DNA from: an uncultured Clostridium sp.
GTDB taxonomy: Bacteria; Bacillota; Clostridia; TANB77; CAG-508
Direction of reading: 5' to 3'
Assembly (NCBI GenBank): GCA_930990645.1
Contig: CAKNQJ010000001.1
Span: 22,260 to 86,259, forward strand
DNA: 64,000 nucleotides
Of this stretch, positions 4,812 through 43,089 are shown in pieces. How positions within the stretch are numbered: position 1 is the first letter of the stretch; each line of letters starts with the position of its first letter. A program made the translations under genes and the position numbers. The notes below the pieces were generated by a model. That model was not told the origin of the DNA, did not search any database, and saw only the letters and a list, made by a program, of their open reading frames with translations.

Positions 4812-4840
4812 ATGTAACAAAAATGTCTTGAAAATGTAAT
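4812..4840 (+). promoter_or_regulatory. Triple 11-bp-phased direct repeat, site A (ATGTAACAAAA ATGTCTTGAAA ATGTAAT)
   Basis: ATGT starts at 4812, 4823 and 4834. It can also be read as TGTAAC-N16-TGTAAT. The third repeat ends 224 nt before ATG 5064. Near-identical sites occur at 33358 and 43061. Confidence 0.55.
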
Positions 4841-5002
4841 ATAAATTTAATATTTAATATGTAACTGCTATTTCCGTAAATTAATAGCATAATTTCTGTA
4901 TAGAATGTAAAGATTTAAGTTATTGAAATTATAAATTAAAATGTTAAAATAGTTGTGAATAAATATATTATAAAAAATTATGTAATTTATTATCGATAAC
5001 CA

Positions 5003-5031
5003 TTGAAATGTGGGCGAAAAAGTAGTATAAT
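5003..5031 (+). promoter_or_regulatory. Sigma-A-type promoter candidate for the 5064-15808 operon
   Basis: TTGAAA (5003-5008), 17-nt spacer, TATAAT (5026-5031). AGGAGG RBS at 5053-5058. Confidence 0.5.
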
Positions 5032-5063
5032 TAATGTTATGATATTATGTTTAGGAGGTAGCA

Positions 5064-8000
5064 ATGAGCAGAGTATTAAACAAACTAATTGCAGTAATGA
5101 TTGTCATACTATTGATAGGGACAAACTTGATATTTCTAGCAACAGAGAGTATAGCAGCATCAAGTGCATATGATTCACAAAATAGTAGGACAAACAATTC
5201 GAATGTGGAATTTAATGCATACTTAGAGGGAGGAGTACATGAAACAAGTATAGATATGTCTTCACAAGATATGAAGATATATTTAAATATTTCTGTGCAA
5301 AATATAGGATACTTAAAAAGTGCAGAAATTAGTTTCGAAAATGCCAACTTTAGCATAAATCCAAACGAAGAGAATAGCTACATAAAAAGCGTAGATAAAG
5401 GAAATAACAAAATACAATTAAACCAAATAAATAAAGGCGAAAATGTAGTAATAGAAATACCAATTCAATTTCTTGCTAAAGATGATGTCGCATCAGACTA
5501 TCTAAATAAAGAATTTGGCACACATTTAGTAGCAGAATATATAGATGAAGATGGAAAAAGTATTTCAATAGATAAAACAATATTAAATAAGCTAACTTGG
5601 ACAGCAGAAACAGAAATAGAAAACACAATGAAAATTAATAAATACATACCATATAAACAAGGAGAAAAATATGGTGTGTTATTACAGATGCTTGTAAATA
5701 ACAAAGTAAAGGATAATAAAGTACCAGTAAAAACGAGCAAAACAACAATAACTGTACCAGAATTAAATGGAACTAAACCAAGTAGCGTATCAGTAATGGC
5801 AAATAACACAAAAGCAACAAATGGACAAGAAGATGGAATAAACTTTAATAATAATAATTATGCATATGATGCAGAAAACAATACATTAACAATAACAGTA
5901 GGAAATGCAGCAGACGGAAACAACATGATAAAATGGAAAAAAGATGCGACAGATGAATATATAGTTACATTTATATATGAAGGACAGGATATATATAACA
6001 AAGTAGTAGAATTACAAAATAGAACTGAACAAGAAAACACACAAAGAGAAATAACAAATAGATCAGACATAAATAGAAATGCAGTAGTTAATGAAGAAAG
6101 TGTAAATGCTAATATTGAGACAGATGAAGAGACTATAAATACAAATCAAGAAAGTACAAATAATGCAGTAATAAATACACAAGTTGATGAAAATGATATA
6201 CAAACTAGTGCACCAGTAACAGAAGAAATTGTAACAGAATTAAAAATAGAAACAAATATAAAAGTAGAAGATACATTATATACATTTGATGGACAAACAA
6301 TAACAAAAGATTTTAATTATAGCAATGAACTAAAAGAAAAAATAGGAGAATTAACGACAGCAGAAATATCTGCAACAAACGAAATAAGTAAAGGATACAT
6401 ATATGCAAACTATGATATAGAAAAAGAAGAAGACAAAAAAGAGACAACATATGGTGTAAAATATGTAGCAAATGTAGAAAATATAAACATAGTAGATAGA
6501 GTAGAGTTTAAAGAACAGATAGATAAATTTAAAGGAGAAGAAAAAGAAGGAGAGGAACAACTAGAAGGAGCAACAACTGTAGGAGACAAAAATTATACAT
6601 ATAATAAAGAAATAAAAATATCTAAAACTATATTTGACAAAATGTTAGGTGAAGAAGGAAAAATAGAAGTATTTGATAATACAAATAACAAAATAGGCGA
6701 AATAAATAAAGACACAGAAGTAAATAGCTCAAATGAATATGCAATAGATATATCAGAAGCAAACAAAAATCAAATAGTTATTAGGACAAGCAAACCAATA
6801 ACAGAAGGAAAAATAGAAATAAACATAACAAAAGCAATAGCAAAAAATATAGACTATTCAATAGAACAAATGAGAGAATTTAAAACAATAGAAACATCTA
6901 TGATAGGAAATGTAATAGAAGACTCAAGTGCCAAAACAGCAAAAATAAATATGCTAGAACCAAAAAGTGAAGCTAGTATAGCAATAAACAAAGAACAATT
7001 ATCAACAGTAACAGAAAATAGTAATGTAGAGTTAAGAGCAACACTAGACACATCATCAGTATATAACTCACTATACAAAGACCCTACTATAAAAATAGAG
7101 TTGCCAGAAGTAATTGAAAACGTAGAAGTAAACAGTATAAAAATGCTTTATGCAGATGGACTAAAAATAAAAGAAGCAACACTATCAGAGGAAGATGGAA
7201 AGAAAGTTATAGACATCAGTATTGAAGGAACACAAACAGAATACTCTACGGAAAACCAAGATGTAAAAGGACCAAACATTATAGTAAATACAAATATGGA
7301 ATTAGACAAACTAGGAACAAATCAAGATGCAGAAATAAAAATGCAATATACAAATAATGCAAACACAGAAAGTGAAGATGAAGCAGAAGAGAAAGAAGCA
7401 AAAACAGACATACCAATAATAGCACCAACAGGAGTAATAGCAACAAATGAAGTATCAAACTACAAAGAAGGAGCAGAAGATGTATTAGAAATAGAAGACG
7501 GAACAAAAGAATTAACAATAGATACATATTCAGATGCAAGAGATGTAGTATTTGGGGGACAAGTAATAAACAACTATGATAATGCAATATCAGATGTAGT
7601 AGTACTAGGAAGACTACCAGTACAAGGAAATAAAAATGTAGATACAAATGCAGACTTAGGCTCAAATATGAACATGACATTAAAACAGGGAATAAGCATA
7701 CAAGGAATGGACACAAGCAATATAAAAGTGTACTATTCATCAAATGTAGATGCTACTAATGATTTAAGTGGTCAAGCAAATGGCTGGACAGAAAACCCAA
7801 GCAACTTAGCAGAAGTGAAATCATACTTAATAGTAGTACAAAATATACAATTAGCAACAGGAGAAGGTTTCCAATTTAACTACACAGCAGAACTAGCAGG
7901 AAACATAGCATACAACAATACAACAAATACAATGTACAAAGTATTCTATAACAACATTTCAGATATAGGAACAATAGCAGAAACAAAAGTGTCACCTATA

Positions 8001-10298
8001 ATAAAACTAACAACAGGAGAAGGTCCAGAGATAGAAGTAACATTAAGCTCAAGCATACCAGAGGGAACAACAGTAGGAAATGGACAATATGTAAGATTCT
8101 ATGTTACAGTAAAGAATAATGGAGATATTGAGGCAGAAAATGTGAAATTAAATATTCCTATACCAGAACATATGAGATATGTAGAGTTCGAAGAAATAAT
8201 TAATGAGTACAATTTAGATGAAGATGCAACGAATTATGAAATAGATTTAGGAAATATTAAGTCTGGTGAAAGTAAAGAAGTTGATTATGAATTAGTTGCA
8301 TACATATCAGGTGTGGGAGGTACAATTGATACTATGAACTATGCTGAATTAACAGCAGGAAACATATCAGGAAAAGTAAGGTCTAATGAATATAAAATTG
8401 TACTTGATGCACAACTTCCTCATATGAAAATAGTAAATGAAGTAAATACTGAAGAATCAAGAACTTATTCAGAAGGCTCAACTATAAGATATAATTTGCA
8501 AATAACTTCTAATACTTCTACAGAGTTTAAGAATATTACAGCGACTATACCATTACCAGATGATGTAGAAGTAACAAATGCATATATTGAAAGTGATAGT
8601 GGTAATATTACTGATGGGGTTCAAATTAGTTCTGATAAGGTAATAGTTAATATACCAACACTTGAAAGTTCTGGAACAAAAAATGTAGTAGTAGAATTTA
8701 CTATAGGAGAAAATACTCCAGCAAGTTTTTCTTCGATGGTAACAGTTGCGTCAGATGATATAGGAACTAGATATTCAAATGAAAGAATAATTTATACAGG
8801 AAGAGAAAGCATGACTGGTGAACAATTAGCACCATCAAAAGAATATGTAAAAGAAAATGAAGAATTTAAATATACATTTAAAATTAATACAGAAGGTACT
8901 GCTGATATATTTGGATTTGTACTCGAAGATCAATTACCTAGTGAATTAGACTTAATAAGTTCTTCTGTAGAATTAACAAATTTAGATGGTAGTGAATCAG
9001 AATATAGTGTTGTGGGGAAAGCATTAGAAAATGAGGAGGGAATAGTAACCTTAAAAATATCTAGGCTACCAAAAAATTCAATCCTAACTATTACATTAAC
9101 AGTATCAGGAAGATTACAATCAGAAGCAGATGACGGAAAAGAGTTAGTAAATAGAGCGTATATATATGGGGACAAAGTAGACAGGATAGAATTAAATAGT
9201 ACAACTGTATATTTAGAATATGAACCATTATTACATGATAATCCTACAGGTTCAGGAGCAGGTAATAGATTTAGCATATCTGGAACAGCATGGCTTGACG
9301 AAAATCAAGATGGTATGAGAGACGGAGAGGAGACAACAATTTCAGGAGTACAAGCATTATTATTATATAAATCAAATGGACAACTTGTTACTGATGCAGA
9401 TACAGGAGAAAACAAAATATCAACAACAGGGGAAGATGGAAGATATCAATTTACAAACTTAACTCCAAATCAATATTTAGTAGTATTTGTATATGATGCA
9501 GGTTTATACAGTATAACAACATATCAAAAAGAAGGAGTAAACGAAAGTAGAAACTCAGATGCAATAGAAACAAATATAAACCTAAACGGAACAAGACAAA
9601 TAGCAGGTGTAACAGATACATTACAAGTTTCAAATGACAGCATAAGAAATATAGACTTAGGACTATATCAAGATGAAAAATTTGACTTAAGTGTAGAAAA
9701 ATATATTACTAAGATTTCATTAACAACACCAACAATAGGAACAGCACAATACGAATATGGAGATTCAGTATTTGAGAAAGTTGAAATTCTAGGGCAAAAC
9801 GCAGGAAGAAGTAGCATGGTAATGGAATACAAAATAGTAATAAGAAATGAAGGTGGAGTAGCAGGATATGCAAGAAAAATAGTAGACTACTTACCAGAAG
9901 GAGTTGGATTTAGTACAGACTTAAATAAAGATTGGTATTTATCAGAGACAAATGGAAACATATATAATACAAGCTTAGAAAATACAATAATACAACCAGG
10001 AGAGACAAAAGAATTGACATTGATATTAACAAAACAAATAACAGAAGATACAATAGGAACAACATTAAGTAACCAAGCAGAGATATACGAAAGCTATAAT
10101 GAAGAAGGACTAAAAGACATAGACTCAACAGAAGCAAATAGAGAAACAGAAGAAGACGATTTGGGACAAGCTGATGTACTAGTATCACTAGTAACAGGTA
10201 AAATAATAATGTACACAGGAATAGTAATAGTAGTACTAGCAATGATTACAACAGGGATAATAGTAATCAAGAAAAAAGTACTAACTAAAAATAAGTAA
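5064..10298 (+). CDS. Giant surface protein (1744 aa) with signal peptide, DUF11-type repeats, SdrD B-like/Cna-B-type domain and C-terminal TM anchor
   Basis: Signal peptide MSRVLNKLIAVMIVILLIGTNLIFLATESIAASS. DUF11-like segments run ~7986-9264 (e.g. GQYVRFYVTVKNNGDIEAENVKLNIPIPEHMRYV). An SdrD-B-like segment at ~9279-9654 reads SGTAWLDENQDGMRDGEE...GEDGRYQFTNLTPNQYLVVFVYD. The C-terminal TM plus KKKVLTKNK lies at ~10179-10295. No LPXTG motif. Confidence 0.9.
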   Translation: MSRVLNKLIAVMIVILLIGTNLIFLATESIAASSAYDSQNSRTNNSNVEFNAYLEGGVHETSIDMSSQDMKIYLNISVQNIGYLKSAEISFENANFSINPNEENSYIKSVDKGNNKIQLNQINKGENVVIEIPIQFLAKDDVASDYLNKEFGTHLVAEYIDEDGKSISIDKTILNKLTWTAETEIENTMKINKYIPYKQGEKYGVLLQMLVNNKVKDNKVPVKTSKTTITVPELNGTKPSSVSVMANNTKATNGQEDGINFNNNNYAYDAENNTLTITVGNAADGNNMIKWKKDATDEYIVTFIYEGQDIYNKVVELQNRTEQENTQREITNRSDINRNAVVNEESVNANIETDEETINTNQESTNNAVINTQVDENDIQTSAPVTEEIVTELKIETNIKVEDTLYTFDGQTITKDFNYSNELKEKIGELTTAEISATNEISKGYIYANYDIEKEEDKKETTYGVKYVANVENINIVDRVEFKEQIDKFKGEEKEGEEQLEGATTVGDKNYTYNKEIKISKTIFDKMLGEEGKIEVFDNTNNKIGEINKDTEVNSSNEYAIDISEANKNQIVIRTSKPITEGKIEINITKAIAKNIDYSIEQMREFKTIETSMIGNVIEDSSAKTAKINMLEPKSEASIAINKEQLSTVTENSNVELRATLDTSSVYNSLYKDPTIKIELPEVIENVEVNSIKMLYADGLKIKEATLSEEDGKKVIDISIEGTQTEYSTENQDVKGPNIIVNTNMELDKLGTNQDAEIKMQYTNNANTESEDEAEEKEAKTDIPIIAPTGVIATNEVSNYKEGAEDVLEIEDGTKELTIDTYSDARDVVFGGQVINNYDNAISDVVVLGRLPVQGNKNVDTNADLGSNMNMTLKQGISIQGMDTSNIKVYYSSNVDATNDLSGQANGWTENPSNLAEVKSYLIVVQNIQLATGEGFQFNYTAELAGNIAYNNTTNTMYKVFYNNISDIGTIAETKVSPIIKLTTGEGPEIEVTLSSSIPEGTTVGNGQYVRFYVTVKNNGDIEAENVKLNIPIPEHMRYVEFEEIINEYNLDEDATNYEIDLGNIKSGESKEVDYELVAYISGVGGTIDTMNYAELTAGNISGKVRSNEYKIVLDAQLPHMKIVNEVNTEESRTYSEGSTIRYNLQITSNTSTEFKNITATIPLPDDVEVTNAYIESDSGNITDGVQISSDKVIVNIPTLESSGTKNVVVEFTIGENTPASFSSMVTVASDDIGTRYSNERIIYTGRESMTGEQLAPSKEYVKENEEFKYTFKINTEGTADIFGFVLEDQLPSELDLISSSVELTNLDGSESEYSVVGKALENEEGIVTLKISRLPKNSILTITLTVSGRLQSEADDGKELVNRAYIYGDKVDRIELNSTTVYLEYEPLLHDNPTGSGAGNRFSISGTAWLDENQDGMRDGEETTISGVQALLLYKSNGQLVTDADTGENKISTTGEDGRYQFTNLTPNQYLVVFVYDAGLYSITTYQKEGVNESRNSDAIETNINLNGTRQIAGVTDTLQVSNDSIRNIDLGLYQDEKFDLSVEKYITKISLTTPTIGTAQYEYGDSVFEKVEILGQNAGRSSMVMEYKIVIRNEGGVAGYARKIVDYLPEGVGFSTDLNKDWYLSETNGNIYNTSLENTIIQPGETKELTLILTKQITEDTIGTTLSNQAEIYESYNEEGLKDIDSTEANRETEEDDLGQADVLVSLVTGKIIMYTGIVIVVLAMITTGIIVIKKKVLTKNK

Positions 10299-10312
10299 GA
10301 AAGGAGGACAAT

Positions 10313-13300
10313 ATGAAGAAAATATTAAAATGGTTTCTAATATTAATAGGAACTGTAGCAGTATCAGTAGGAATTTCTCTAACTATTTCTACAAATCTTT
10401 CAACAGAAACTATAGCACAAATAGAAGAGAATACTACAAAACAAGCATCAGGACAATGTAGCCCAAACCCAATAATCCTAATTAGAGAAAACCTAGAGGG
10501 TTATGGAGCAGATGGCTCAAAACTATTTAGACCAATTGCTGCAGATTCGGATTTGGAACTTTATTGTGTTGAACCTGGGGCGGCTCTAGGAACAAGTGGC
10601 TCAGTTGATTATTCTGAATTGCAGGAATATGTTAGTAGTTATCATACTTCAAGTGCACATGGATGCGCTACACCACCTAGAGAAATGAAAACTTTGCCAT
10701 ACTATTATTGTCATGGAGAGCATTACACTGAAAGTTCAACAACGGTATATGGAAGGTATGTTGGGAATTTATATGATGCTGGATATGCTGCATCTTTCTT
10801 CCCAGACGGAGCACAAACACTTAACTGGGATGATAATCAATGGAGTGGAGGTAAGCAACAAGCTATTTGGATGTTGTATGGATTAAATAAACGTGATGAT
10901 CCAAACAGAGGAACCTATAGAACTGAAGGAGAATTAATAGTAGAAGAAGCAACTGCTTATAGAGAGTTTTATGAAAAAATAATGGAAAAAGACCAAAATG
11001 GGAATATAGGTATGAAACCTAAGGATATTACTAACTACGAAAATGTAAGTGTTAGCACAGATACTAATAATCAAACACACATAATAGGGCCATTTACTAT
11101 TGACTATGTAAAAGGAAGATATCGTATAGAAGGACCTTATGGAACTTATAATATGGCATTTGGTGGAATTTCAGATATGTGGTTAGTAGATGAGGACGGA
11201 AGAAGAATAGAAATTCAAAAATTTATAAGACCAGAAATAGGAAGTTATAAAGAGCCAAGTTATTTTGATACCTTTGACACTGAGGAAGGAAAACCTAACC
11301 CAAACTGCGTAGACTACTATGATAATGGAAGAAATTATCCAGATCCAAATGAACCATTTTATGTGGAAATTGCATATACTGGAGAAGAATCAACATCATA
11401 TACATTAAATGCAGAGTTTCAATATATGAAATCAACAGCAAAATTTTGTGTAAGAGAGGGTATTAGGTATGTTTCAGCGCCAAGCGATCGTGATACTCCA
11501 CATACAGATCCCGGAGACCCACCTACACCTTGTCATAGTTGTGACATGAGGGCAAAAATAGACACTATCGATCAACAAGATTTAGTTTATGTTGTAGAGT
11601 CTAATAGGGAAATAATAACTGAGTCATTTACTGGAGGACCAGATGATAATGGACCACCAGCAAAAACAATGAAACTTGGTGGATATGTATTTGAAGATAC
11701 ACCATCAGGAAAAGAGCAAGATGTTGATGGAGTAATGAATGAAGGAGAAAGAATAATACCAGGAGCAAAAGTAACATTATATGAAGTAGATGATAATGGA
11801 AATAGAGAACTAGCACAGCTAAGAACATTAAGAGATGAAAATCCAAATATATCAGATGCAGAAGTAAATGATCCTGATGATTATACAAGAAGAATAAATC
11901 CAACTCTATCAGATGCATATGGATATTATGAATTTAGAGGATTGGACACAGAGAAAAACTATATTGTTGAGTTTGAATACAATGGTCAAATATATATGCC
12001 AACAGAATATTTAGCAGGAACAGGACACGATTCTGTATCGGACATGGTAGATGCAAATCAATATGATACAGCAGGTACAAAGAGTGAACAATGGAGACAA
12101 ACTTCAAAAGCATTAGAAGTTGCAAGCGAGAGAACAACATATGACCAAAGATTTGCTGAAATACGTTCATATCCTGAAAACTATACAATGAATCCAGATG
12201 GATTAAGTTTAATTAGTGGAAGTAATGGATATAATGTAGCATTCTCAATATATGATTTGATGGGATTTAATTTAACAGCAGATGGAACATATGAACAAAA
12301 ATTAGATACTCCTTTAATTGATACATATTACTATTTAGATAATGGAGTAATAATGATAGGTGAAGATATCAAAGAAGGTTTAATTACAACAAGGATAAGA
12401 GAGTTTATAGACCAGAATAAGAAATATCCATCTGATCAAGAAATGAGAAATATATATACTGGAATTGTTAATGAAATAGCAGGAGACTTGGATGGAGGAC
12501 AACAAGAAGCATGGCAAATGATACAATTTGTAGAAGATAGCAAAATAAGTGCATATACAATTAATAACATGAATAATGCAAATTCATATGATATATATCC
12601 AGTATACAATGATCAAAAAGCAGATATAAAAAATCGCAGGATGACAACAAATGTAGAAAGTGGAAATGAGTATCCATATAACAGTTATAATAGAGATACA
12701 CATACACATGATTCTAGTAAGAGTGTATATACAAATAAAGTGTATCCGATGAATGGTGAATTACGAGAATTCAAAAATATCTACGAAGGACAATTATTTG
12801 TAAACTGTGGATTGTGGAGAAGACAAGAAGCTGATATGGCTATTAACAAAGACGTATACAAAGCGGCATTAAAGATTAATGACAAAACAATAGTATATAA
12901 CTATGATAAGAGAAGTGCTACCGTAGATGAACAAGATGGAGATAATGATGGCAAGAACAATGAAGATGGAAATCAAGACAATCAAACATATTGGGATATA
13001 TACCTAAGAATGTCTGATTATGATAACTACTATGGAAAGTCATATAGTGAAGATGGTCAAGCTGGATACATGAGAGAAATATATCCTACAGATTACTTAT
13101 TTGATACGCCAGGGGAAGGTGGCATAGCACCAGGTCATCCAGGTGATCCACTAGAAGTATATATAACGTATAAAATTACTGTAAGAAACCAATCAATGAG
13201 TATATTAACAGAAATAGAGGAAGTTGTAGATTATTATGACCAAGACTATACATTTAAACCAAACTTATCATGGGTAATGTATAGAGGAAGTAACACAGAG

Positions 13301-25352: not shown

Positions 25353-25511
25353 AACTTGTTTCCTCCTTTTTTCAATATAATATTATAATAACATAATTAT
25401 TAATATTATACAACGATTTTGTGAAAAGTATGTGAAAATTAAATTTGAAAAAATTAGTAATATTTTTGGTACAAGCAACATATAATATAATATGGCCATT
25501 AATTTGAATAT

Positions 25512-27675: not shown

Positions 27676-27685
27676 AAGAAAGGAA

Positions 27686-30027: not shown

Positions 30028-30181
30028 CATGTCAAAATAAAATGACAACGCATACTTTGAAAATGCAAAGTCATGAATTGTAATAATGATATAATTCATG
30101 CTATAATAGATGCAGGACAGGACAAAACAAGCCCGTCCCCAATTGTCCTAAAATTTTAAGATTAGAAAGGGATGTAATTTA

Positions 30182-30889: not shown

Positions 30890-31074
30890 TTGTTTTTGGC
30901 GTTGTTGCACTTCGTTTGAAATTTAATGGGCGTAGCAAAGAGTACGCCTCATAAATTTCAAACTCGTGCGCTTAGCCAAAAAGCAATTCTTTTTCGAATT
31001 AAATAAGAAGAAAGATTAGATGGAGAAAAAGTTCGAACTATTGTGTCTAGCCAAAAACAATTATCTTTCGAATT
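30876..31074 (+). repeat. Family A element, copy 4 (30876-31000) plus an extra right-end fragment (31045-31074)
   Basis: Left end AATTCGAAAGATAATTG (30876-30892) is imperfectly complementary to 30984-31000. It is perfectly complementary to CAATTATCTTTCGAATT at 31058-31074. The central stem has variant but still complementary sequence (TTTGAAATTTAATGGGCGTA...TACGCCTCATAAATTTCAAA). Confidence 0.7.
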
Positions 31075-31095
31075 AAAAAAGAAAGGAGAGATTGA

Positions 31096-33204: not shown

Positions 33205-33350
33205 CAAAAGGGACACTCCTTTTTGTCAAATTTTTTTTACACTTAGGGACACTCCTTCTTGTCCAAGTTTTTGGATGTTTAGGAGTGTCCCTTTTGTCCA
33301 AGTTTTTGGGCGTTTTGGAGTGTCCCTTTTGTCCCTTTTGTCAATTTTGT
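33201..33350 (+). repeat. Family B repeat cluster, second locus (terminator hairpin 33201-33238 plus GGGACACTCC / GGAGTGTCCC units in both orientations)
   Basis: The first ~42 nt are identical to 18689-18730, and the kinase stop TGA (33202-33204) lies inside the stem. Downstream come GGGACACTCC (33246-33255), then AGGAGTGTCCC (33281-33291) and GGAGTGTCCC (33318-33327). Confidence 0.75.
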
Positions 33351-33357
33351 CACAAAC

Positions 33358-33386
33358 TTGTAACAAAAATGTAAAGAAAATGTAAT
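33358..33386 (+). promoter_or_regulatory. Triple 11-bp-phased direct repeat, site B (TTGTAACAAAA ATGTAAAGAAA ATGTAAT)
   Basis: Repeat starts at 33358, 33369 and 33380. Site B matches site A at 25 of 29 positions. It lies 200 nt upstream of TTG 33586 and directly after the two-component system. Confidence 0.55.
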
Positions 33387-33585
33387 GTTTTTTGCTTTCA
33401 TGAAAATCCGTAACTATAACTGCTTTTTTCCAAAAAGATAATGTATTGACGAAAAAAAACAAATAATATAATATCAAAACGTTAGAGTGGATTAATGTAT
33501 AATTTATAAACTATATGTTAAACAAACAATGGTCTTTATTATTAAGATAAAGGTAAGAGAAATTTTAAAATCTGGAGGTGAGATT

Positions 33586-34881
33586 TTGAAGAACTTACAT
33601 TATAACAGAAATGTTAGTAACAATACGTACAATGTTGTGATTACAAGGAAGCACAAGACTAGTTGTATAAGAAGAATGTTTATGTTGTTAATAGCTATAA
33701 TTGTTTTCCTTACAAGTGCTTTTATTCTAAATGTAAACTATTCAAAAGCTGCCACCTTAGAGCCACAGGAAAATCAAAAAGTAGAATATAGAGCAACAGA
33801 ATTAAATAAAACAGATAATGGAAATCAGCTTATTATAGAAATATGGATACATAATCTTAACTTTAAAGGTATGGATTTAAGATTAGAGTATGATGAAAAT
33901 ATTTTAAAACCTTCAAATTTATCCACAAATGAAATCATTGATGTGAATAGTGAGCTTACAATTCCAAGCTGCTTTGAATTTACAAATGGATTTGGAGGAT
34001 ATCTTGACTACTTTGCTATGGAAATGTCAGATAATGAATATAGAGGCATTTTATCAATGGTAGGAAAAGATGACAGGACAGGTACTAACGAATATTTAGT
34101 AGAAGATGACGACATAGGAGATTATGTTTCAATAAATGGAGATGTGCTTCTTGCTAAATTAAGCTTTAATGTGGGAGATAGTACAAGAGAAAATATAAGT
34201 ACTCAAAGTTTAAGACTAAAAGAAGCTTCTACTTCACCACAAACAGGTATAAAGGTAAATGTAAATGGAACAGATTCGTACGAAGCACAAAAATTATTTG
34301 AATTTACACTCGATTTAGAGCCAGAAGTAGGGACAATAACAGGAAGCATACAACTTGGTGATGGCTTAAGAGAAAACATAGATGCATCATATGGGATTTA
34401 TGTGGAATATATAGCAAATGCTACTTTATATAAATCTGGACAATTTAACTGGGATGGAGTAGTCGAAGGAGAAACTTCACTTGAAGAATTGGACGGATTA
34501 GAGAAAATAGCACAAGTACAGACAAATAAAGATGATGGAAGTTTTAAAATAGAAGCTCCACCAGGAGAATATGATTTGCTATTAGAAAGAGAAGGATTTT
34601 TGGCATATATAATTACTGGAATCCAAGTAGAAATAAACGGAGACATTAATATAGGCAATAAAGTCTTATTAGAGGGAGATGTCGACAGAAGCGGAATAAT
34701 AGATCTAGACGATATAGTAGAAGTTACAAATGTTAGAGACGCAGTAGAAGGAAGCATTACATATAATGAAAAATATGACTTCGGACAAAAGGGCTTTATA
34801 TCTCTTGATGATATAGTTTCTACTACAAATAATAGAGATGAATTAATAAAAATTGAAAAATATGAGAAAGGGGAGGAATAG
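33586..34881 (+). CDS. Secreted protein with cohesin-like N-terminal domain, carboxypeptidase-regulatory-like beta-sandwich and C-terminal dockerin-like module
   Basis: I prefer TTG 33586 after GGAGGTGAG; the track start is 33529. Signal/TM MFMLLIAIIVFLTSAFILNVNYSKA. Cohesin-like features are IEIWIHNLNFKGMDLRLEYDENILKP and LLAKLSFNVGD. The dockerin-like part has EF-hand loops GDVDRSGIIDLDDIVEV and a degenerate DFGQKGFISLDDIVST. Confidence 0.7.
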   Translation: MKNLHYNRNVSNNTYNVVITRKHKTSCIRRMFMLLIAIIVFLTSAFILNVNYSKAATLEPQENQKVEYRATELNKTDNGNQLIIEIWIHNLNFKGMDLRLEYDENILKPSNLSTNEIIDVNSELTIPSCFEFTNGFGGYLDYFAMEMSDNEYRGILSMVGKDDRTGTNEYLVEDDDIGDYVSINGDVLLAKLSFNVGDSTRENISTQSLRLKEASTSPQTGIKVNVNGTDSYEAQKLFEFTLDLEPEVGTITGSIQLGDGLRENIDASYGIYVEYIANATLYKSGQFNWDGVVEGETSLEELDGLEKIAQVQTNKDDGSFKIEAPPGEYDLLLEREGFLAYIITGIQVEINGDINIGNKVLLEGDVDRSGIIDLDDIVEVTNVRDAVEGSITYNEKYDFGQKGFISLDDIVSTTNNRDELIKIEKYEKGEE

Positions 34882-34884
34882 AAG

Positions 34885-37800
34885 GTGAAAGGTCAGAAAA
34901 GAATTGCTTTAATAACAGTAATAATTATGTTAGTAAGTATGTTTTCACCATACACAGCATTAATTAATACAGTAAAAGCAGCAACAGGAACAATTGAAGA
35001 GAAGCCAGTAGTATTTAATAATCTTGGAATAACAACAAAAGGCAATAACAGAATACTTAAAGTACAGGTGGCAATTGCTTCCGAGGAAATAATAAACGGA
35101 TTGGATTTGAAATTTACAATTGATACAGATAGAATAGTTCCATGTAATAAAAATACAGGAACAGAAACAACAAACATGGCTATGGCTGCAGCACAAAATG
35201 CATATTATGCTGGTATGCTAACTAAAGAATATAATAATGGCATATATAGACTTACTGCAGTCGAAAACAAAGGTGGATTTAATATTATAGGAGAAGGATA
35301 TATACCAGGTGAAATGGGAGACCCAGAATTTGATGACCCAGGAGAAGGATTCGCAGGATATTATCCAATAATTGATTATTACTTTAAAGTCTTAGATGAC
35401 GATATTACAGAAGAAAATTTGCCAACAGATATATTTACATTAACATCTCAAACAGGAAGTTTACCAACAGGTTGTAAAATTGCATATATGGGACCAAGTG
35501 GTACAGAACAATTAAGTAAAGACCTTACAGAAATGTATTTCAAAGGTTTTGCAGAGCCTGACAAAGTAATAGAGTCAATAGCAGTTTCAATTAACCCAAA
35601 CGAAACAACATATGAGCATGGAGATACAGTTGACTTGACAGGTGGAAAAATAGAAATTACTTATGCAGATAAATCAACAGAAGAAATAGACATGATAAAT
35701 CCAGATGTAAAAATTGTATCTGGCTCACCAGCAGATGTAAATAATCCAAAAGTTACATTGGAATACAAAGGAAAAACATGTAGTTTTAATATTACAGTAA
35801 ATGATCCAATAGTCTCTTTAGAGGTTTCGAAACCTATGTCAGACTTAGAATATGACCATGGGGAAAACTTTGATTTTTCTGGTTTAGAGCTAACTGCAAC
35901 AAAATTAAGTGGAGCAACTGAAAAGCTAACTTTTGAAAGCGAAGGTGTTAGCATAAGCGAAACACAAGCAGATGTAAATTCACCAAACTTTACACAAACA
36001 TCGGACGAAGGAGATTTACCAGTAAAGGGTACACAAAAAATAACATTTACATATGAAGGCAAAACAGCATCCCAAACAGTTGTAGTAAATGATACAATTA
36101 CAGGAATAAACTTAATAAGTCAGCCAAATAAAAAAGTATATAAGTATGGCGAAAGTTTAGAGTTAGATGGAGCAAGTGTAAGAATCACTTTAGGAAGTGG
36201 AGCAAGTGCAAACATAGATTTACCAGATGGAAGTATTGAAGTTTCAGAGTACAATCCGACAATGACAGGTGCAAAGCAAAATCTAACCGTTAGCCTAAAT
36301 GGTATGCAAGCTGCAGATACAATAGATGTAGAAGCATATAACTATATAAAAGAAACTAAATTAACAGAGCCAAATAAAGCAGAATATAAATATGGAGAAG
36401 ATTTAAATTTAGCAGGAGGAAGATTAGCTCTTATCTGGGCAGATGGAAGGGTTACAAATGTAAATCTTTCAGAAGATATGGTTACAGGATATGATAAAAC
36501 ACAAATAAAATTGCAAGAGCTTACTGTAACATATGAAGCAAATTATGAATTATCAGATGGAAGTAGCATAAAAGATACTTTTAAACATACTTTTGAGGTT
36601 GAAGTTATAAATCAAATAGAGAGCATTGAAATTACACCACCAACTAAGACTATATTTAATCATGGAGAAAGTTTAAATTTAGAAGGTGGCTCAATAAAAG
36701 TTATTTATGCAGATGCAAGCTCAAGTACAGTAGATATTAACCAAGCTACAATAGCAGAAAGTGATGGCTCACCAGTAAATATGAGTCCAGACAGTTATGA
36801 TGCTACTAATAAAGTAAGCAAAACATTAAAAATAAAATATACAGAGGATGAAGTAACAGAAGAAATAGATTTCCCAATAGAAATAATAAATGATGTAAAA
36901 TCTATTGAAATGAAAACTCTTCCTCAAACACAGTATAATGTAAATGAAGCATTAAACTTAGAAAATGGAGAAATTTTAGTAACTAGAGCTCAAGGAGAGC
37001 CAGAAGTCATTAAACTATCTGACAGTAGAGTACAAGTTACAGGATTTGATAGTAGTACAGAAACAGACAATTTACTACTTACAGTAAAATTCACGGAAAA
37101 CGGAATTTCAAAAACAACAACATATAATGTAAGTATCAAAGATACTATAACAGGAATAGAGTTAATTTCGCAACCTAATAAAAAAGATTATAAATATGGA
37201 GAAAGCATCGATCTTGATGGAGCAATGATAGAAATTACAAAAGGAAGCGGAAAAACACAAATTGCAGTAGACAAAGGAATGATATCTTCATATAATCCAA
37301 ATCAATTAGGAGAACAACAATTAACAGTAACATATGAAGGACATGAAGCAGCAGACAAAATTATAGTAAATGTAAATGATTATGTAATAGGAATTAAAGT
37401 TACACCACCAACAAAAACAAACTACGAAAAAGATGAACAATTAGACCTATCAGGTGGTCTAGTAACAAGCATAATGGCAAGTGGAGAGCCAGGAGAAACT
37501 GTAGACTTAGAAGAAGATATGATTACAACAGAATTTGATTCTACAAAAGCTGGTCCACAAGAACTTACAGTAGAATATGGAGGCTTTACAGATACATTTA
37601 CAGTAACAGTAGCAGACTATATAACAGAAATTACTATAAATCAATCTCCAAAAACAGAATATAAATACGGAGAAGAATTAGGAACACCAGGAGGAAGCAT
37701 AACAATTCATTATCAATCAGGTGCAACGCAAGATGTAAATATCACACCAGATATGATTACAGATGCAGATGGAACACCATTTGATACAACAGATGTAACA

Positions 37801-40800
37801 TTTGAAGAAGGGGAGACTACAGCAAAGAAAGATGTAAAAGTAACATATGAAGGATTTGAAACAACATATGAAATTACAATTAAAGACTATATTGCAAAAG
37901 TGGAAATCATACCTCCAAGTAAAACAGAATACAAATATAATGAAGACCTAGATTTATCAGACGCAAAAGTAACAATTACAATGGCAAGTACCCCAGACGA
38001 GCCAATAGAAATACCAGTTACAAGCAATATGATAACAGGTTATGACAAAACACAATTAGAAGAGCAATCAGTAACAATAAAATATACAGATGATGAGGGA
38101 ACAGAACATACAAAACAGTTTGAAGTAAACGTGGTAGATGAAATATTAAGTATGGAACTAGAAGGAACTCCAAAAACAGACTATATTATAGGAGAAGATT
38201 TAGAACTATCTGGACTAAATGTATTAATACATAAATTATCTGGAGATGAAAGAGCTCCAGTAACAGAAGAAATGATATCTGGATATAACAAAGATGAAGA
38301 AGGCTCACAAACAGTAATAGTTACATACAATGAACAAGAAGTAGGAAGATTTGAAGTAAATGTGGCAAATCCAGTAGAAAGACTAGAATGGATTACGAAG
38401 CCAAAAACATCATATGTTATAGGTGATTTATTAGATGTTACAGGTGGAAAGTTTAAGGCAATTAAGAAAAATGGAGACGAAGAAGAAATCGACTTAACAG
38501 AGGGAATGGTATCTGGATTTAATTCATCAACAACAGGAGATAAAACCATAACAGTAACTTATGAAGAAAAAGAATTGACATATCAAATAACTGTAGTAGA
38601 TGTTATAACAGAAATAGAGATAAATGAAACACCAAAAAATAGATACAATTATGGAGAAGAACTAGGAACACCTGGTGGTTCAATTACAGTAAAATATCTA
38701 TCAGGAGCAAATAAAGTAGTAAATATTACACCTGATATGATTACAGACACAGATGGAACACCATTTGATACAACAGATATAACATTTGGAGAAGGACAAA
38801 CTACAGCAAACAAAATGCAAAAAGTAACATATGAAGAATTTGAAACAACATACGAAATTACAATAGTAAACAGTATAAAAGATATAAGACCAACAGAAGA
38901 ACCAAAGAAAAATTATGTAATAGGAGAAGAGTTCCAAGATGACTTAGTGCTAGAGGTAGAAAGAGAAGATGGAACTAAGGTAGAAATACCTGTAACAGAC
39001 GAAATGGTATCTGGATTTGATACAGATACAGAGGGTCCAAAAGAAATAACAATTACATATGAAGAAAACGGAATAGAAAAAGAATACACATATGAAATAA
39101 CTGTAACAGACAGAGTAAACAAAATAGAAATAACAAAAGACCCTAAAAAAGATTACAAATATGGTGAGGACCTAGTAGCAGGAGGAGAAATTACAGTAGA
39201 AAAAGCAAGTGGAGAAAGCGAAGTTATCACAATCACCCCAGAGATGATAACAGGATATGATAAAACACAGCTAGGATCACAAAATGTAACCATAAACTAT
39301 GGCGGACAAACAGTAGACTTTGAAATAACAGTATCTGACTATATTACGGGAGTAGTAATCACACCACCAAGTAAAGTAGAGTATGAGTATGGAGAAGACC
39401 TAGATTTATCAGACGCAAAAGTAACAATTACAATGGCAAGTACCTCAGACGAGCCAAAAGAAGTACCAGTTACAAGTGATATGATATCAGGCTATGATAA
39501 AACTAAAGTAGAATCTCAAACAGTAACAATAACATATAGAGATGATGAAGGAAAAGACCATACAAAAGAATTTGGTGTAACTGTAAAAGATAAAATAAAA
39601 TCAATCACTTTAGAAACAACAGGAGCTAAAACAGAATATAAATATGGAGAAAATATAGATTTAACAAATGTTAAAATGAATGTAGTATATGAAAGTGGTA
39701 ATATAGATGAAATACCAGTAAATACTGGAATGATTAGTGGTTACGATAGTGAAAAGTTAGGAAACCAAACTATTACAGTAGAATATGAAGACTTTACAGG
39801 AACTTTTGAAGTAACAGTAAAAGATTATTTGAAAGATATTAATTTAATACCACCTACAAAAAATGAATATAAAATAGGTGAAAGCTTAGATTTGACAGGT
39901 GGAAAGATTACTGAAATAATGGCTAGTGGAGCAAGTGGAATTTCTCTAGATTTAGCCCTAGATATGGTATCAGGATTTGATAGTAGCACCCCAGGCACTA
40001 AGAAAATTACTGTAACATATACAAAAGATGGAGAAACATATACAAAATATTTTGAAGTTTCAGTAATAAATTCTACTAACAAAATAGAAGTTATAGCACC
40101 TAATAAAACAGATTACAAATATGGTGAAGATTTAGACTTAACAGGTGGAAAAATAGTAATATCAAAAGTTGATGGAACAGAAGAAGAAAAAGAAATAACA
40201 AAAGATATGATTTCTGGATATGATAAAACAAGTCCAGGACAACAGGTAATTACTGTAACATATACAGACGAAAATAATGAAAAATTCACGGGCTCATTTA
40301 TTGTAAATGTAGGAGAAGACTATGTTGTAGGCTATGATTTTACTGCCCCAAGTAAAACAGACTACAAATATGGCGAAGAATTAGATCTAACAGGTGGAAA
40401 AATTACAGAAATAATGGCTAGTGGAAACAAAGGTAAAGTAACAGAAATAACAAAAGACATGGTATCTGGATATAACCCAGAAAAAGAGGGAACACAAGAG
40501 ATTACAGTTAAATATAATGGAAATACATATACTTATACTGTAACAGTAAAAGACGAAATCAAAGGTATTTCGATTAAGGAATACCCAGACAAATTAGAAT
40601 ACAAAAAAGGAGAAACATTAGATGTAACAGGAGGTATTCTAAATGTTGTAAAAGAAAGTGGAATTTACGAAGTAGAAATAACAAAAGATATGGTATCAGG
40701 ATATAATCCTAACAAAACAGGAATTCAAGTAATAACAGTTACTTATGAAGGATTTACAGCAGAATATATGGTGTATGTTGAAAAAGATGAAGAAATAACT

Positions 40801-41640
40801 CCTCCAATAGATACCCCAGACGATGGAGAAGATGATGACAACATTCCACCAACAGATAATCCTGATGATAATAACGGAAATAATAACAACAGCAACGATA
40901 ATAACAACAATAGTGGAAATAATAACAACAGCAACGATAATAACAACAATAGTGGAAATAATAACAACAGCAATGATAATAACAACAATAGTGGAAATAA
41001 TAACAACAGCAATGATAATAACAATAACAACAACAATGGAAACCATGGTACAACCCCAGGTACTAATGGCAACAATAGTAACAATAATAACAGCAATAGT
41101 AACAACATAAATAATAATGCAAATAACAATCAAACTAATAGCAATACAAATGAAAACGATAACAATGAAAACACAGAAGATAAAGAAGAGCAAAACAATC
41201 AAAATAGTCAAAATAATAATGAAAATATTCCTCCAATAATAGGAAATGTTGATGATAATACCCCACCATCAAACAATGCACAAGATTCTTTTAACGAAGG
41301 ATTTATAAGAGGAATAATGGCTGGTATAACAGGTTTAATAACCTTAGCCGGAATATTACTATTAATAATACTATTTATAAAAGACAGAAAGAATGTAAAA
41401 GTATACATTGAAGAAGGAAACGAAAGAGTTTTAGTAGGTAAAGAAAAAGTTACAAATGGTAACAGAAACATAGATTTAAATAAATACTATGACAAGTACA
41501 AAGAAGATGAATACAAAATTGTATTATCTAAGAATATTAGTAAAAAACTTGATAATAAAATAATAAATATTACGGTACATGATAAACATGAAAGAGTAAT
41601 AGTTGATTATCAAGACAAAGAATTTATAGTTAAAACTTAG
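34885..41640 (+). CDS. Giant surface protein (2251 aa): signal peptide, cohesin-like domain, 21 Big_3-type Ig-like domains, Asn-rich stalk, TM helix, 86-aa cytoplasmic tail
   Basis: GTG start 4 nt after the upstream stop, with RBS GGGAGGAA. There are 21 repeats of the pattern P.K..Y.YGE.LDL.GG.I...YA.G (~35550-40790). The N-rich region is 40800-41290, the TM GIMAGITGLITLAGILLLIILFI ~41311-41379 and the tail 41380-41637. Confidence 0.9.
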   Translation: MKGQKRIALITVIIMLVSMFSPYTALINTVKAATGTIEEKPVVFNNLGITTKGNNRILKVQVAIASEEIINGLDLKFTIDTDRIVPCNKNTGTETTNMAMAAAQNAYYAGMLTKEYNNGIYRLTAVENKGGFNIIGEGYIPGEMGDPEFDDPGEGFAGYYPIIDYYFKVLDDDITEENLPTDIFTLTSQTGSLPTGCKIAYMGPSGTEQLSKDLTEMYFKGFAEPDKVIESIAVSINPNETTYEHGDTVDLTGGKIEITYADKSTEEIDMINPDVKIVSGSPADVNNPKVTLEYKGKTCSFNITVNDPIVSLEVSKPMSDLEYDHGENFDFSGLELTATKLSGATEKLTFESEGVSISETQADVNSPNFTQTSDEGDLPVKGTQKITFTYEGKTASQTVVVNDTITGINLISQPNKKVYKYGESLELDGASVRITLGSGASANIDLPDGSIEVSEYNPTMTGAKQNLTVSLNGMQAADTIDVEAYNYIKETKLTEPNKAEYKYGEDLNLAGGRLALIWADGRVTNVNLSEDMVTGYDKTQIKLQELTVTYEANYELSDGSSIKDTFKHTFEVEVINQIESIEITPPTKTIFNHGESLNLEGGSIKVIYADASSSTVDINQATIAESDGSPVNMSPDSYDATNKVSKTLKIKYTEDEVTEEIDFPIEIINDVKSIEMKTLPQTQYNVNEALNLENGEILVTRAQGEPEVIKLSDSRVQVTGFDSSTETDNLLLTVKFTENGISKTTTYNVSIKDTITGIELISQPNKKDYKYGESIDLDGAMIEITKGSGKTQIAVDKGMISSYNPNQLGEQQLTVTYEGHEAADKIIVNVNDYVIGIKVTPPTKTNYEKDEQLDLSGGLVTSIMASGEPGETVDLEEDMITTEFDSTKAGPQELTVEYGGFTDTFTVTVADYITEITINQSPKTEYKYGEELGTPGGSITIHYQSGATQDVNITPDMITDADGTPFDTTDVTFEEGETTAKKDVKVTYEGFETTYEITIKDYIAKVEIIPPSKTEYKYNEDLDLSDAKVTITMASTPDEPIEIPVTSNMITGYDKTQLEEQSVTIKYTDDEGTEHTKQFEVNVVDEILSMELEGTPKTDYIIGEDLELSGLNVLIHKLSGDERAPVTEEMISGYNKDEEGSQTVIVTYNEQEVGRFEVNVANPVERLEWITKPKTSYVIGDLLDVTGGKFKAIKKNGDEEEIDLTEGMVSGFNSSTTGDKTITVTYEEKELTYQITVVDVITEIEINETPKNRYNYGEELGTPGGSITVKYLSGANKVVNITPDMITDTDGTPFDTTDITFGEGQTTANKMQKVTYEEFETTYEITIVNSIKDIRPTEEPKKNYVIGEEFQDDLVLEVEREDGTKVEIPVTDEMVSGFDTDTEGPKEITITYEENGIEKEYTYEITVTDRVNKIEITKDPKKDYKYGEDLVAGGEITVEKASGESEVITITPEMITGYDKTQLGSQNVTINYGGQTVDFEITVSDYITGVVITPPSKVEYEYGEDLDLSDAKVTITMASTSDEPKEVPVTSDMISGYDKTKVESQTVTITYRDDEGKDHTKEFGVTVKDKIKSITLETTGAKTEYKYGENIDLTNVKMNVVYESGNIDEIPVNTGMISGYDSEKLGNQTITVEYEDFTGTFEVTVKDYLKDINLIPPTKNEYKIGESLDLTGGKITEIMASGASGISLDLALDMVSGFDSSTPGTKKITVTYTKDGETYTKYFEVSVINSTNKIEVIAPNKTDYKYGEDLDLTGGKIVISKVDGTEEEKEITKDMISGYDKTSPGQQVITVTYTDENNEKFTGSFIVNVGEDYVVGYDFTAPSKTDYKYGEELDLTGGKITEIMASGNKGKVTEITKDMVSGYNPEKEGTQEITVKYNGNTYTYTVTVKDEIKGISIKEYPDKLEYKKGETLDVTGGILNVVKESGIYEVEITKDMVSGYNPNKTGIQVITVTYEGFTAEYMVYVEKDEEITPPIDTPDDGEDDDNIPPTDNPDDNNGNNNNSNDNNNNSGNNNNSNDNNNNSGNNNNSNDNNNNSGNNNNSNDNNNNNNNGNHGTTPGTNGNNSNNNNSNSNNINNNANNNQTNSNTNENDNNENTEDKEEQNNQNSQNNNENIPPIIGNVDDNTPPSNNAQDSFNEGFIRGIMAGITGLITLAGILLLIILFIKDRKNVKVYIEEGNERVLVGKEKVTNGNRNIDLNKYYDKYKEDEYKIVLSKNISKKLDNKIINITVHDKHERVIVDYQDKEFIVKT
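40876..41031 (+). repeat. 39-nt tandem repeat x4 inside the CDS (encodes GNNNNSNDNNNNS)
   Basis: The unit GGAAATAATAACAACAGCAA(C/T)GATAATAACAACAATAGT starts at 40876, 40915, 40954 and 40993 (the last is diverged). Confidence 0.8.
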
Positions 41641-42048: not shown

Positions 42049-42300
42049 TTAAGTATTTAAGCTGGATAATTTATATAATTCAGATTCATAATAATTATAA
42101 GTATGTTTACCTATAATGTCAGAATAGTTTTTCATCTGTTTATCTTTACAGTATATGTCAACATTTTGACCATCTAAACTTATTGTAACATATCCCATAT
42201 ACTTTTTTTCATGTGATTTTCCAAATAATTTGCCTTGCATTGGACATAATTTAAAAATATCATAATGGTGCAAGTCAGTTTTATTAATAGAAAATTGCAT
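42049..42300 (-). CDS. Hypothetical small protein (83 aa)
   Basis: ORF with a weak RBS. A hairpin lies downstream (AAGACACAGCAAA...TTTGCCGTGTCTT, ~41968-42021). No family recognised. Confidence 0.4.
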   Translation of the reverse strand: MQFSINKTDLHHYDIFKLCPMQGKLFGKSHEKKYMGYVTISLDGQNVDIYCKDKQMKNYSDIIGKHTYNYYESELYKLSSLNT

Positions 42301-42474
42301 AAAAAATAAATCCTTTCAATAATTTTTTTAATTAGTTATGTTTAAAATAACTTGTAAATACTATATTATTATACCATACTTTACATAAAAAATGAAAACT
42401 ATTGAATTAATTAAAAAAATATAGTAAAATGCAAAAAGTTAGAACAAAATTTGAGGAAAGGAACGAAGGATAAA

Positions 42475-42882
42475 ATGGAAGATAAAGATGTAAAAACAAA
42501 AAAATTAAATAAAATAAATGAAATAAGAAAGATAAAAAGCAAGAAAATTATTATTATATCAATAATTTCAGTGATAATAATTGCATTTATAGCATTAATT
42601 TGTGTATATGCGTTAGATGCAACAAGAAATACTTTTGGAGGAAAAATATCATCTATATTCGAACAGGATAAAGACATAACTGAAGAAAAGGCTGTTACAA
42701 AGGCATTAGATAGATTTACTGAAATGGGAGAAGAAAATCTAATAACAAATGATTTAGAAGTTTTAAAAATAAATAGAAAAGGTGAGTATTACTACTATAT
42801 CTCATCGCCTCAGAATTCACTGGAAATACGTATTTCAGATGGGAAAATAGTAAGAGAAAATAGTGTGCTAGTAGAAGAATGA
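42475..42882 (+). CDS. Membrane-anchored PepSY-like domain protein
   Basis: I prefer ATG 42475; the track start is TTG 42451. It has a Lys-rich N-terminus, [25 protein letters not shown] and a PepSY-like ITEEKAVTKALD...YYYYISSPQNSLEIRISDGKIV. Confidence 0.6.
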   Translation: MEDKDVKTKKLNKINEIRKIKSKKIIIISIISVIIIAFIALICVYALDATRNTFGGKISSIFEQDKDITEEKAVTKALDRFTEMGEENLITNDLEVLKINRKGEYYYYISSPQNSLEIRISDGKIVRENSVLVEE

Positions 42883-43060
42883 CGCTCAAATCTTACGTAA
42901 ATAAGCAAGAGAGCCAATTTCTAACAACAAAAAACATACAAAAAAGGAACTTTACTAAAAAAATAAAGTTTCTTTTTTTGTGCGGAAAATCAAGGGTTTC
43001 AAAAATTATCCACAAAGTACATGAAAAATGTGAATAACTCCAACTTCAAAATATTACAAA

Positions 43061-43089
43061 ATGTAACAAAAATGACAAAAAAATATAAT
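43061..43089 (+). promoter_or_regulatory. Triple 11-bp-phased direct repeat, site C (ATGTAACAAAA ATGACAAAAAA ATATAAT)
   Basis: Repeat starts at 43061, 43072 and 43083. It reads as TGTAAC-N16-TATAAT. The third repeat ends 223 nt before ATG 43312, versus 224 nt at site A. Confidence 0.5.

Follow-up and report, generated by a model that had tools for sequence, protein, structure and literature searches.

A helically phased TGTAAY repeat array, probably part of an upstream regulatory region, at three giant surface-protein loci of an uncultured gut Clostridia bacterium

What is the repeated element that stands upstream of each of three giant surface-protein loci in a 64-kb stretch of DNA from an uncultured Clostridium species (GCA_930990645.1, contig CAKNQJ010000001.1)? 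An earlier note on this DNA had read it either as an operator for a regulator of the OmpR/PhoB family, perhaps the one that is encoded nearby, or as a promoter that the three loci share. We call the whole 64-kb stretch the window. Coordinates refer to its + strand, and we studied the spread of the element in a scan of one genome per species and in loci from metagenomes. The DNA of the window has a G+C content of about 30% and is known from gut metagenome assemblies only. We conclude that the element is most likely a helically phased upstream regulatory region rather than a promoter. We also think it probable that the three sites are the distal part of a regulatory region that acts at the DNA level, in phase with a sigma-A promoter, and that they likely serve as a docking place for a response regulator.

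The core of the element is an array of hexamers of the type TGTAAY with a period of 11 bp. Site A (4813..4851, + strand) reads TGTAAC-AAAAA-TGTCTT-GAAAA-TGTAAT-ATAAA-TTTAAT, and its four units start at 4813, 4824, 4835, and 4846. Site B (33348..33386, + strand) reads TGTCAC-AAACT-TGTAAC-AAAAA-TGTAAA-GAAAA-TGTAAT, with units at 33348, 33359, 33370, and 33381. Site C (43062..43089, + strand) reads TGTAAC-AAAAA-TGACAA-AAAAA-TATAAT, with units at 43062, 43073, and 43084. Sites A and B thus carry a fourth unit (TTTAAT and TGTCAC, respectively). All three sites lie upstream of giant surface-protein units, and the coordinates and strand of the three composites were confirmed. Distances from the third unit to the start codon (ATG at 5064 for locus A, TTG at 33586 for locus B, and ATG at 43312 for locus C) had been given as 224, 200, and 223 nucleotides (nt), and they are 223, 199, and 222 nt.

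Are these three sites special within the window? Within the window, these are the only places with the exact 13-mer TGTAACAAAAATG, and a relaxed three-unit score found no further intergenic site in the 64 kb. A 28-nt pattern, TGTAACAAAAATG-N5-AAAAT-N-TAAT, has 3 matches in the window with at most 3 mismatches, as compared to 0.03 expected, and 0 of 100 shuffles reached 3, but this statistic is circular because the pattern was built from the three sites themselves. We therefore put more weight on the 13-mer, on the relaxed score, and on conservation across species.

Each array is followed by a box, TTCCGTAAA. At site A the box is TTTCCGTAAAT (4871..4881), which begins 33 nt past unit 3 and 22 nt past unit 4. 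At site B it is AAATCCGTAACT (33404..33415), which begins 21 nt past the last unit, or one helical turn less than at site C, where TATCCGTATAT (43118..43128) begins 31 nt past unit 3. The motif TCCGTAWMT occurs exactly three times in the window, once at each site (33, 21, and 31 nt past unit 3), which bears out the claim that a CCGTA motif follows all three arrays. If we align the three sites with each other, then only the array and the box align. The box 8-mer has about 40 occurrences in the 1.09 Mb that we scanned, and in 8 of these an array precedes it by exactly 28-30 nt. Taking all of the composites together, the last unit and the box are separated by either 30-33 or 20-22 nt, two classes that are one helical turn apart. 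Near site C there is also a single perfect DnaA-box sequence, TTATCCACA, at 43006-43014, about 48 nt upstream of the array.

Arrays of this kind are widespread in the clade. The 28-nt pattern has 64 exact matches in about 50 species, almost all of which are metagenome-assembled genomes (MAGs) of uncultured gut Clostridia, and the hosts are human, rabbit, chicken, deer, and termite. Elsewhere, the arrays in their canonical form consist of an 11-mer in tandem, (TGTAAY AAAAA)n, where n = 3-6. We counted bases in 52 non-redundant arrays of other species at the positions that the search pattern leaves free. Unit 2 is TGTAAY (T in 48/52, A in 50/52, A in 52/52, and C or T in 50/52), and 44/52 arrays have G at position 2 of unit 3. 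At the only free position of the spacer, A is found in 42/52 arrays and G in 7/52. The spacer is AAAAA or GAAAA, with an A/T-rich segment after each hexamer. A partial fourth unit lies upstream in this set, and some arrays have 4-6 units. To judge by these base counts, the array is a true repeat and not two hexamers.

This repeat bears directly on the idea that the array itself is the promoter. In that reading, TGTAAC would be the -35 element and TRTAAT the -10 element of a promoter for sigma-A or for an alternative sigma factor, with a 16-nt spacer. Leaders would be about 200 nt long, and CCGTA would be an RNA or pause signal (e.g., an ops-like signal for a NusG paralogue that assists in the transcription of very long genes). 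The 16-nt spacing and the TATAAT at site C do look like a promoter, the array is mostly co-directional with the downstream gene, and the array at L059 ends just 18 nt before the start codon. (We refer to array loci in relatives by L numbers.) We also counted for this reading that very long operons often rely on processive antitermination (RfaH/LoaP). A repeat array, however, speaks against a pair of -35 and -10 elements. In such a pair the spacer should be unconstrained, and the -10 element should have A at position 2, which is its most critical base. Instead, sites A and B have the same G at this position as most arrays of other species, and what would be the spacer is a conserved third hexamer (a TGTAAY unit in 48 of the 52 arrays) within arrays that may have 4-6 units. 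Also, the box is 10 nt closer at site B, and no conserved RNA structure follows the array (the z-scores of the folds are -0.5, +0.9, and +0.4 in the window). Finally, our promoter scan did not list the array, and it did list good predicted sigma-A promoters downstream at phased distances. So we consider it highly improbable that the array is the promoter, and an ops-like signal is unlikely.

We looked at several other readings of this kind. At gathering thresholds, Rfam gave no match in the window and none in nine array loci. A riboswitch or leader RNA was rejected because there was no Rfam match and no fold above shuffles and because the element is upstream of the predicted promoters. A conserved RNA hairpin around CCGTA was dropped: the six regions that we folded had no common structure, and the strong hairpins at L030 and L054 are locus specific. 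A promoter of the extracytoplasmic function type (TGTAAC ... CGTA) was rejected as well: the spacing at these sites is 9 nt or over 50 nt, and never 16-17 nt. Lastly, we dropped the idea that the array serves a divergent gene, as there is a divergent neighbor at site A only, while the genes before sites B and C are co-directional and have terminators.

Where, then, might transcription begin? Each composite is followed by a predicted promoter of the form TTGAMA-16/17-TAnAAT. At locus A, the predicted sigma-A promoter P1 (4923..4950, + strand; TTGAAA-16-(TG)-TAAAAT) has its -35 element 49 nt after the C of CCGTA and gives a predicted leader of about 106 nt. Its position is kept in relatives (49 in L009 and 48 in L054). 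At locus B (33446..33474, + strand; TTGACG-17-TAATAT) the distance is 38 nt and the predicted leader is about 105 nt; at locus C (43170..43197, + strand; TTGACT-16-TAAAAT) these are 49 nt and about 108 nt. If these promoters are right, then the leaders would be about 105 nt long instead of the roughly 200 nt that was proposed in the earlier note. Relative to the predicted starts, the box is at about -82 and the array at about -145 to -107 for site A. For site B they are at about -71 and -133 to -95, and for site C at about -81 and -142 to -115.

Locus A has two additional features. A second predicted promoter, P2 (5003..5031, + strand; TTGAAA-17-TATAAT, 11/12), lies near the start codon, and the block that holds it has hardly changed in L054 and L009. 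We also tentatively identify a single proximal TGTAAA unit (4906..4911, + strand), which comes after the box and 11 nt ahead of the -35 element of P1. Comparable lone TGTAAT or CGTAAT units are found 20-21 nt after the box at L086, L088, L089, L008, L016, and L017.

If we take the best-scoring promoter after each non-redundant box, then the distances from the C of CCGTA to the -35 element are 38, 38, 46, 46, 47, 47, 48, 49, 49, 49, 56, 56, 57, 57, 58, 58, 58, and 58 nt. These form three classes that are about 10 bp apart (Rayleigh R 0.8 at a period of 10-10.5 bp, p ~1e-5), although this p value, like our counts of loci, overstates independence, as many of the loci are orthologous and shared ancestry inflates it. 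Arrays without a box are phased as well: in six independent promoter families, the gap from the array to a strong -35 element (score of at least 11) is 9, 10, or 20 nt. At L004 the -35 element overlaps the last base of the array (this was seen by eye and is under the threshold of the promoter scan). At veg loci, the gap from the array to the -35 element is fixed at 68-70 nt. Because the predicted promoters sit at phased distances downstream, we read the element as an upstream site on one face of the helix. As an aside, at L033, L034, and L057 there are (TA)n microsatellites with a length of 20-30 nt, which stand about 25 nt past the arrays and before the downstream genes. The genes behind these tracts are pilin-like at L033 and L034. 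It is possible that changes in the length of (TA)n shift the phasing between array and promoter and cause phase variation.

The composite of array and box is itself conserved at giant genes. In a subset of loci, the array is followed by TTTCCGTAAA, and the genes downstream encode giant surface proteins: L007, L008, L009, L016, L017, L048, and L054 have homologs of locus A, and L042 has a homolog of locus C. For a test that is blind to the motif, we gathered relatives of the locus-A protein from metagenomes by protein similarity alone, which gave 18 loci at 28-38% identity. All 18 have TGTAAY-N5-TGTAAT-N5-TTTAAT, which is followed after 31-32 (or about 20-22) nt by cTTCCGTAAA and further on by a sigma-A-like promoter. 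In the close orthologous regions L054 and L009, a 46-nt array block is identical and the upstream flank is unrelated. Close orthologs conserve only the array block, the box, and the promoter blocks. This conservation supports the proposal that the element is a shared cis element of three giant loci (at least 39 kb) that may be regulated together.

What do the arrays precede in general? Of 43 non-redundant downstream products, 31 have an N-terminal hydrophobic segment (72%, versus 42% in the background). The genes behind arrays include those for a G5/SH3 glucosaminidase, for C1 proteases, for a cohesin-like protein, and for pilin-like proteins, as well as a penicillin-binding-protein-like gene. 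The earlier note had said that many copies of the motif without relation to surface genes would count against it. Outside of the window there are in part such copies (at veg and others), and yet 72% of the products look exported or membrane bound. Of the seven arrays at veg, one (L055) has CCGTA exactly 31 nt after unit 3, which may be due to chance, and the other six lack it. The array pattern had no match in viral contigs, so we dropped an association with phage, and a literature search for TTCCGTAA-type motifs found primers only.

Besides the shared ancestry of the loci, several points weigh against our interpretation. The 64 loci were picked with a pattern that was derived from the window. 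All of the promoters were predicted by consensus. Sites A and C have a degenerate middle unit (TGTCTT and TGACAA, respectively), so that only their units 1 and 3, which are 22 bp apart, fit the consensus of known operators described below. The distal arrays (at about -100 to -150) are more remote from the promoter than class I sites typically are, and the box hexamer is about half a turn off the lattice of the array, which is a poor fit to a simple extension of one oligomer. For the L015 family, the nearest strong promoter is divergent. (We found no RNA genes there, and we dropped the idea of an rRNA or tRNA promoter.) Finally, arrays also precede genes for cytoplasmic proteins, such as veg in 7 species, so a "surface regulon" is only a tendency.

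What sort of protein would bind the array? The response regulators WalR and RpaB fall within one branch of the OmpR/PhoB family, and proteins of this kind bind direct repeats of 10-11 bp, each of which is followed by an A/T-rich minor-groove segment. The array has at least two direct-repeat half-sites that are 10-11 bp apart, as these operators do, and its predicted position (upstream of or overlapping the -35 element, on a fixed face of the helix) fits them as well. Some of these promoters have several sites: ompF of E. coli (F1-F4) and the TT(A/T/C)ACA arrays of PhoP in B. subtilis have several half-sites, phased at 10-11 bp over about 100 bp, with cooperative binding and bending. Our arrays are similar in having phased half-sites upstream of a sigma-70-type promoter. 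They differ in sequence and organism, in being almost invariant across about 50 species, and in having a distinct box.

Among the closest matches is WalR (YycF/VicR) of Firmicutes, whose consensus is TGTWAH-N5-TGTWAH (bioRxiv 10.1101/2022.04.01.486798). Both have direct repeats of a hexamer with an 11-bp period, and site B and most arrays of other species fit the consensus exactly: units 2-4 of site B make two perfect pairs, sites A and C match with units 1 and 3 only, and unit 3 is TGTAAT in 44 of the 52 arrays. As with WalR, the genes behind our arrays are enriched for proteins that are secreted or belong to the cell envelope, and one of them encodes a peptidoglycan glucosaminidase. On the other hand, our arrays have 3-6 units rather than 2, a spacer that is almost invariantly AAAAA, and, at giant genes, the extra CCGTA box. 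Also, the regulator and kinase in the window score under the cut-offs for WalR and WalK, and we saw no WalRK ortholog within the window.

On the other strand, the array resembles the HLR1 element of RpaB, whose half-site, (G/T)TTACA(T/A)(T/A), is repeated after a spacer of two bases (N2) and whose activating sites are centered at about -50, with a function that depends on position (PMC6525291). The reverse complement of the array unit, GTTACATT, is this half-site, and the proximal arrays put their last pair of units at about -54 relative to the predicted promoters. HLR1 differs in that its period is 10 bp instead of 11 bp, it is a pair rather than an array, and it is found in cyanobacteria. 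Because the units agree with the WalR consensus and, in reverse complement, with the RpaB half-site, a regulator of the OmpR/PhoB family appears to be the best candidate for the binder of the array, and the proposed reading of the 11-bp layout as an operator of this type holds up. We also compared motifs for Spo0A, CodY, SaeR, LytTR, and H-NS-like proteins and set them aside, some of them for poor fit.

Is the binder encoded next door? The only DNA-binding regulator that we saw in the window is an OmpR-family response regulator at 30182-30889 (+ strand), which is VanR-like by its profile matches. It is paired with a histidine kinase of 702 amino acids at 31096-33204 (+ strand); the pair spans 30182..33204 and is most similar to the VanR/VanS models. 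Perhaps this pair binds the sites (the array, the CCGTA box, or both) and controls the three loci. The best NCBIfam matches of regulator 30182 are VanR models, at 264 bits (cut-off 350). With the YycF model it reaches 202 bits (cut-off 340), and it reaches 200 bits with the RpaB model, which is among its better NCBIfam matches, and the kinase scores 117 on WalK (cut-off 725). The DNA-binding domain is generically close to those of VicR/WalR, SaeR, and CovR. Regulator 30182 is also extremely conserved (over 120 clusters at 90% identity, with 91-100% identity, as compared to 60-87% for the flanking core genes and 60-68% for the kinase), and this matches the near invariance of the array in the clade. 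By eye, the kinase has a segment of about 220 residues between its first and later hydrophobic stretches, as expected of an environmental sensor.

The box offers a further comparison. VanR-type proteins such as VanRG have the consensus (T/C)CGTANGAAA(T/A)T, with sites upstream of the -35 element at about -100 to -43 (PMC4405338). The YCGTA core of such sites is the same as the core of our box, CCGTA, and the box is also upstream of -35. This shared core suggests a lead for the binding of 30182 to the box, and nothing more. The box is single and unrepeated, beyond YCGTA it does not match the 3' half of the 12-mer, there are no van genes, and the scores are under the curated cut-offs of the family. 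VanR-type direct repeats of the 12-mer are absent, with no further 12-mers near the regulator or the sites.

Other evidence also speaks against regulator 30182. In relatives whose regulator is 92-94% identical, the kinase is followed by yraN/dprA or by rpoB/rpoC and not by giant genes. So the adjacency is not kept, and loci B and C look like species-specific insertions beside a core two-component system. A regulator of the 30182 type is not nearby at any other array locus. There is no array or box upstream of the regulator's own gene, in the window or in relatives, and we dropped autoregulation by this route for that reason. Furthermore, the clade has at least one more pair of the OmpR type, found at L034, whose kinase is WalK/PhoR-like. 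Thus the link to the adjacent pair, as drawn in the earlier note, is unproven, and we consider it unlikely that 30182 is the binder that controls the three loci. A variant of this idea would have two factors and act as an enhancer-like switch: a clade-wide "surface" regulator on the TGTAAY/A5 array and, specifically at giant adhesins, 30182 on the CCGTA box, driven by a kinase whose extracellular sensor is large, in a complex that is wrapped by phasing and bending. This seems quite unlikely to us. If true, a single signal from the host or from the envelope would decide whether giant adhesins encoded in over 39 kb, one of which has over 6,900 residues, are deployed in a widespread group of uncultured gut bacteria.

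Alternatively, the array might need no dedicated protein at all. Phased A5 tracts could curve the DNA, or the array could resemble an UP element and contact the alpha subunit of RNA polymerase, and either would boost promoters nearby. A5 tracts every 11 bp are a classic recipe for curved DNA, and phased A-tracts upstream of Gram-positive promoters stimulate transcription (for example, at plc in C. perfringens and at promoters of Bacillus phages). Several arrays are directly upstream of a strong -35 element, and the A-tracts often stay in phase between the array and the box (L078, L088, and L042). However, the TGTAAY hexamer is as invariant as the A-tract, which curvature alone would not need. 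Also, the distal arrays at -100 to -150 are beyond the reach of the alpha subunit, and a box that contains G and C at a fixed distance implies recognition of a specific sequence. We consider it very unlikely that DNA architecture suffices.

Returning to a response regulator docked on a phased upstream region, how might the parts work together? In the window, the array has 3-4 TGTAAY-type hexamers with A-rich spacers and a lattice of 11 bp, and we suggest that its binder occupies one helical face cooperatively. This binder would be a dimerizing or oligomerizing winged-helix response regulator of the OmpR/PhoB family, with a specificity for hexamers like that of WalR, RpaB, or PhoP. Relative to the predicted start, the array lies at about -95 to -150 and the single box at about -70 to -95, which is 21 or 31-33 nt (two or three turns of the helix) past the array. 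The predicted promoter (TTGAMA for -35 and TAtAAT for -10) follows at 38, 48, or 58 nt past the box. Arrays without a box stand 0, 10, or 20 nt before the predicted -35 element at many other promoters of exported or envelope proteins in the clade, which is the geometry for contact between an activator and RNA polymerase. At the promoters of giant adhesins, the box may recruit either one more molecule of this regulator or a different protein, and bending at the A-tracts could bring the distal array to the promoter. Because arrays elsewhere sit in this proximal geometry, our analysis favors activation rather than repression. The net result would be that the three giant loci (at least 39 kb) answer to one signal together, within a clade-wide "cell surface" regulon.

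The loci themselves are unusual in size. Locus A (5064..15808, + strand) encodes surface proteins of 1,744 and 1,831 amino acids with SdrD_B and DUF11 domains and a C-terminal membrane anchor. Locus B (33586..41640, + strand) encodes a protein of 431 amino acids, from the TTG at 33586, and another of 2,251 amino acids with 16 Big_3 domains. That there are three giant loci stands, with the correction that the third (43312..64000, + strand) is a single open reading frame (ORF) of over 6,896 codons that runs past the end of the window. It has RCC1-like, Big_2, and cadherin-like repeats: long internal modules of RCC1-like and Big_2 repeats come before cadherin-like repeats of about 90 residues. 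Some copies of these repeats are nearly identical in DNA (e.g., at 48189 and 49587). Divergent from locus A, on the - strand, are three small ORFs of 53, 142, and 143 amino acids (3637-4655), which are Asn rich and Tyr/Pro rich and have no match in Pfam or NCBIfam. This divergent operon of small proteins (m53-m142-m143) is kept beside locus-A-type giant genes in distant species. Between it and minC, near locus A, is a gene that resembles transposases of the PD-(D/E)XK nuclease family (2389-3306, - strand).

The window also has two families of repeated elements of other kinds. First, a long hairpin occurs upstream of a G5-domain gene (25509-25596) and, as a nested pair (29868-30030, with the inner copy at 29908-29998), upstream of regulator 30182. 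The copies share 5' AAAGTCCG, the loop TTTTGTAyTCTCCATGTwTTCGArTAAAAA, and a CACGTG junction. Their 12-bp stems differ from each other and remain complementary, and the RNAs fold at -33.4 and -30.9 kcal/mol (z -6.3 and -6.8). This hairpin had no match in Rfam even at E <= 1, and the exact loop was found in the same organism only. Second, a terminator-like module (TTGACAAAAGGGACACTCCTTTTTGTCAA and a run of T) is found in tandem, with a period of about 36 nt and decaying copies, at 18690-18790 and 33201-33345 and also at L044 and L071-L074. In the window it follows spoIIE and the kinase gene, and the cluster behind the kinase gene, which has two copies in forward and two in inverted orientation, is directly upstream of site B.

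What does this mean for these bacteria? We regard the element as a clade-wide addition to the phased operators of response regulators that are already known, and at the promoters of giant adhesins its composite form is distinctive. The phasing of array, box, and promoter is a clean natural example of face-of-helix constraints, and it requires no new regulatory principle. These uncultured gut Clostridia have small and AT-rich genomes, and a large share of their coding capacity goes to giant surface proteins. A conserved operator that is easily recognized can help us to learn when these proteins are produced. From it follow a predicted regulon, whose members can be compiled by scanning MAGs and should be co-expressed, and a short list of candidate regulators.

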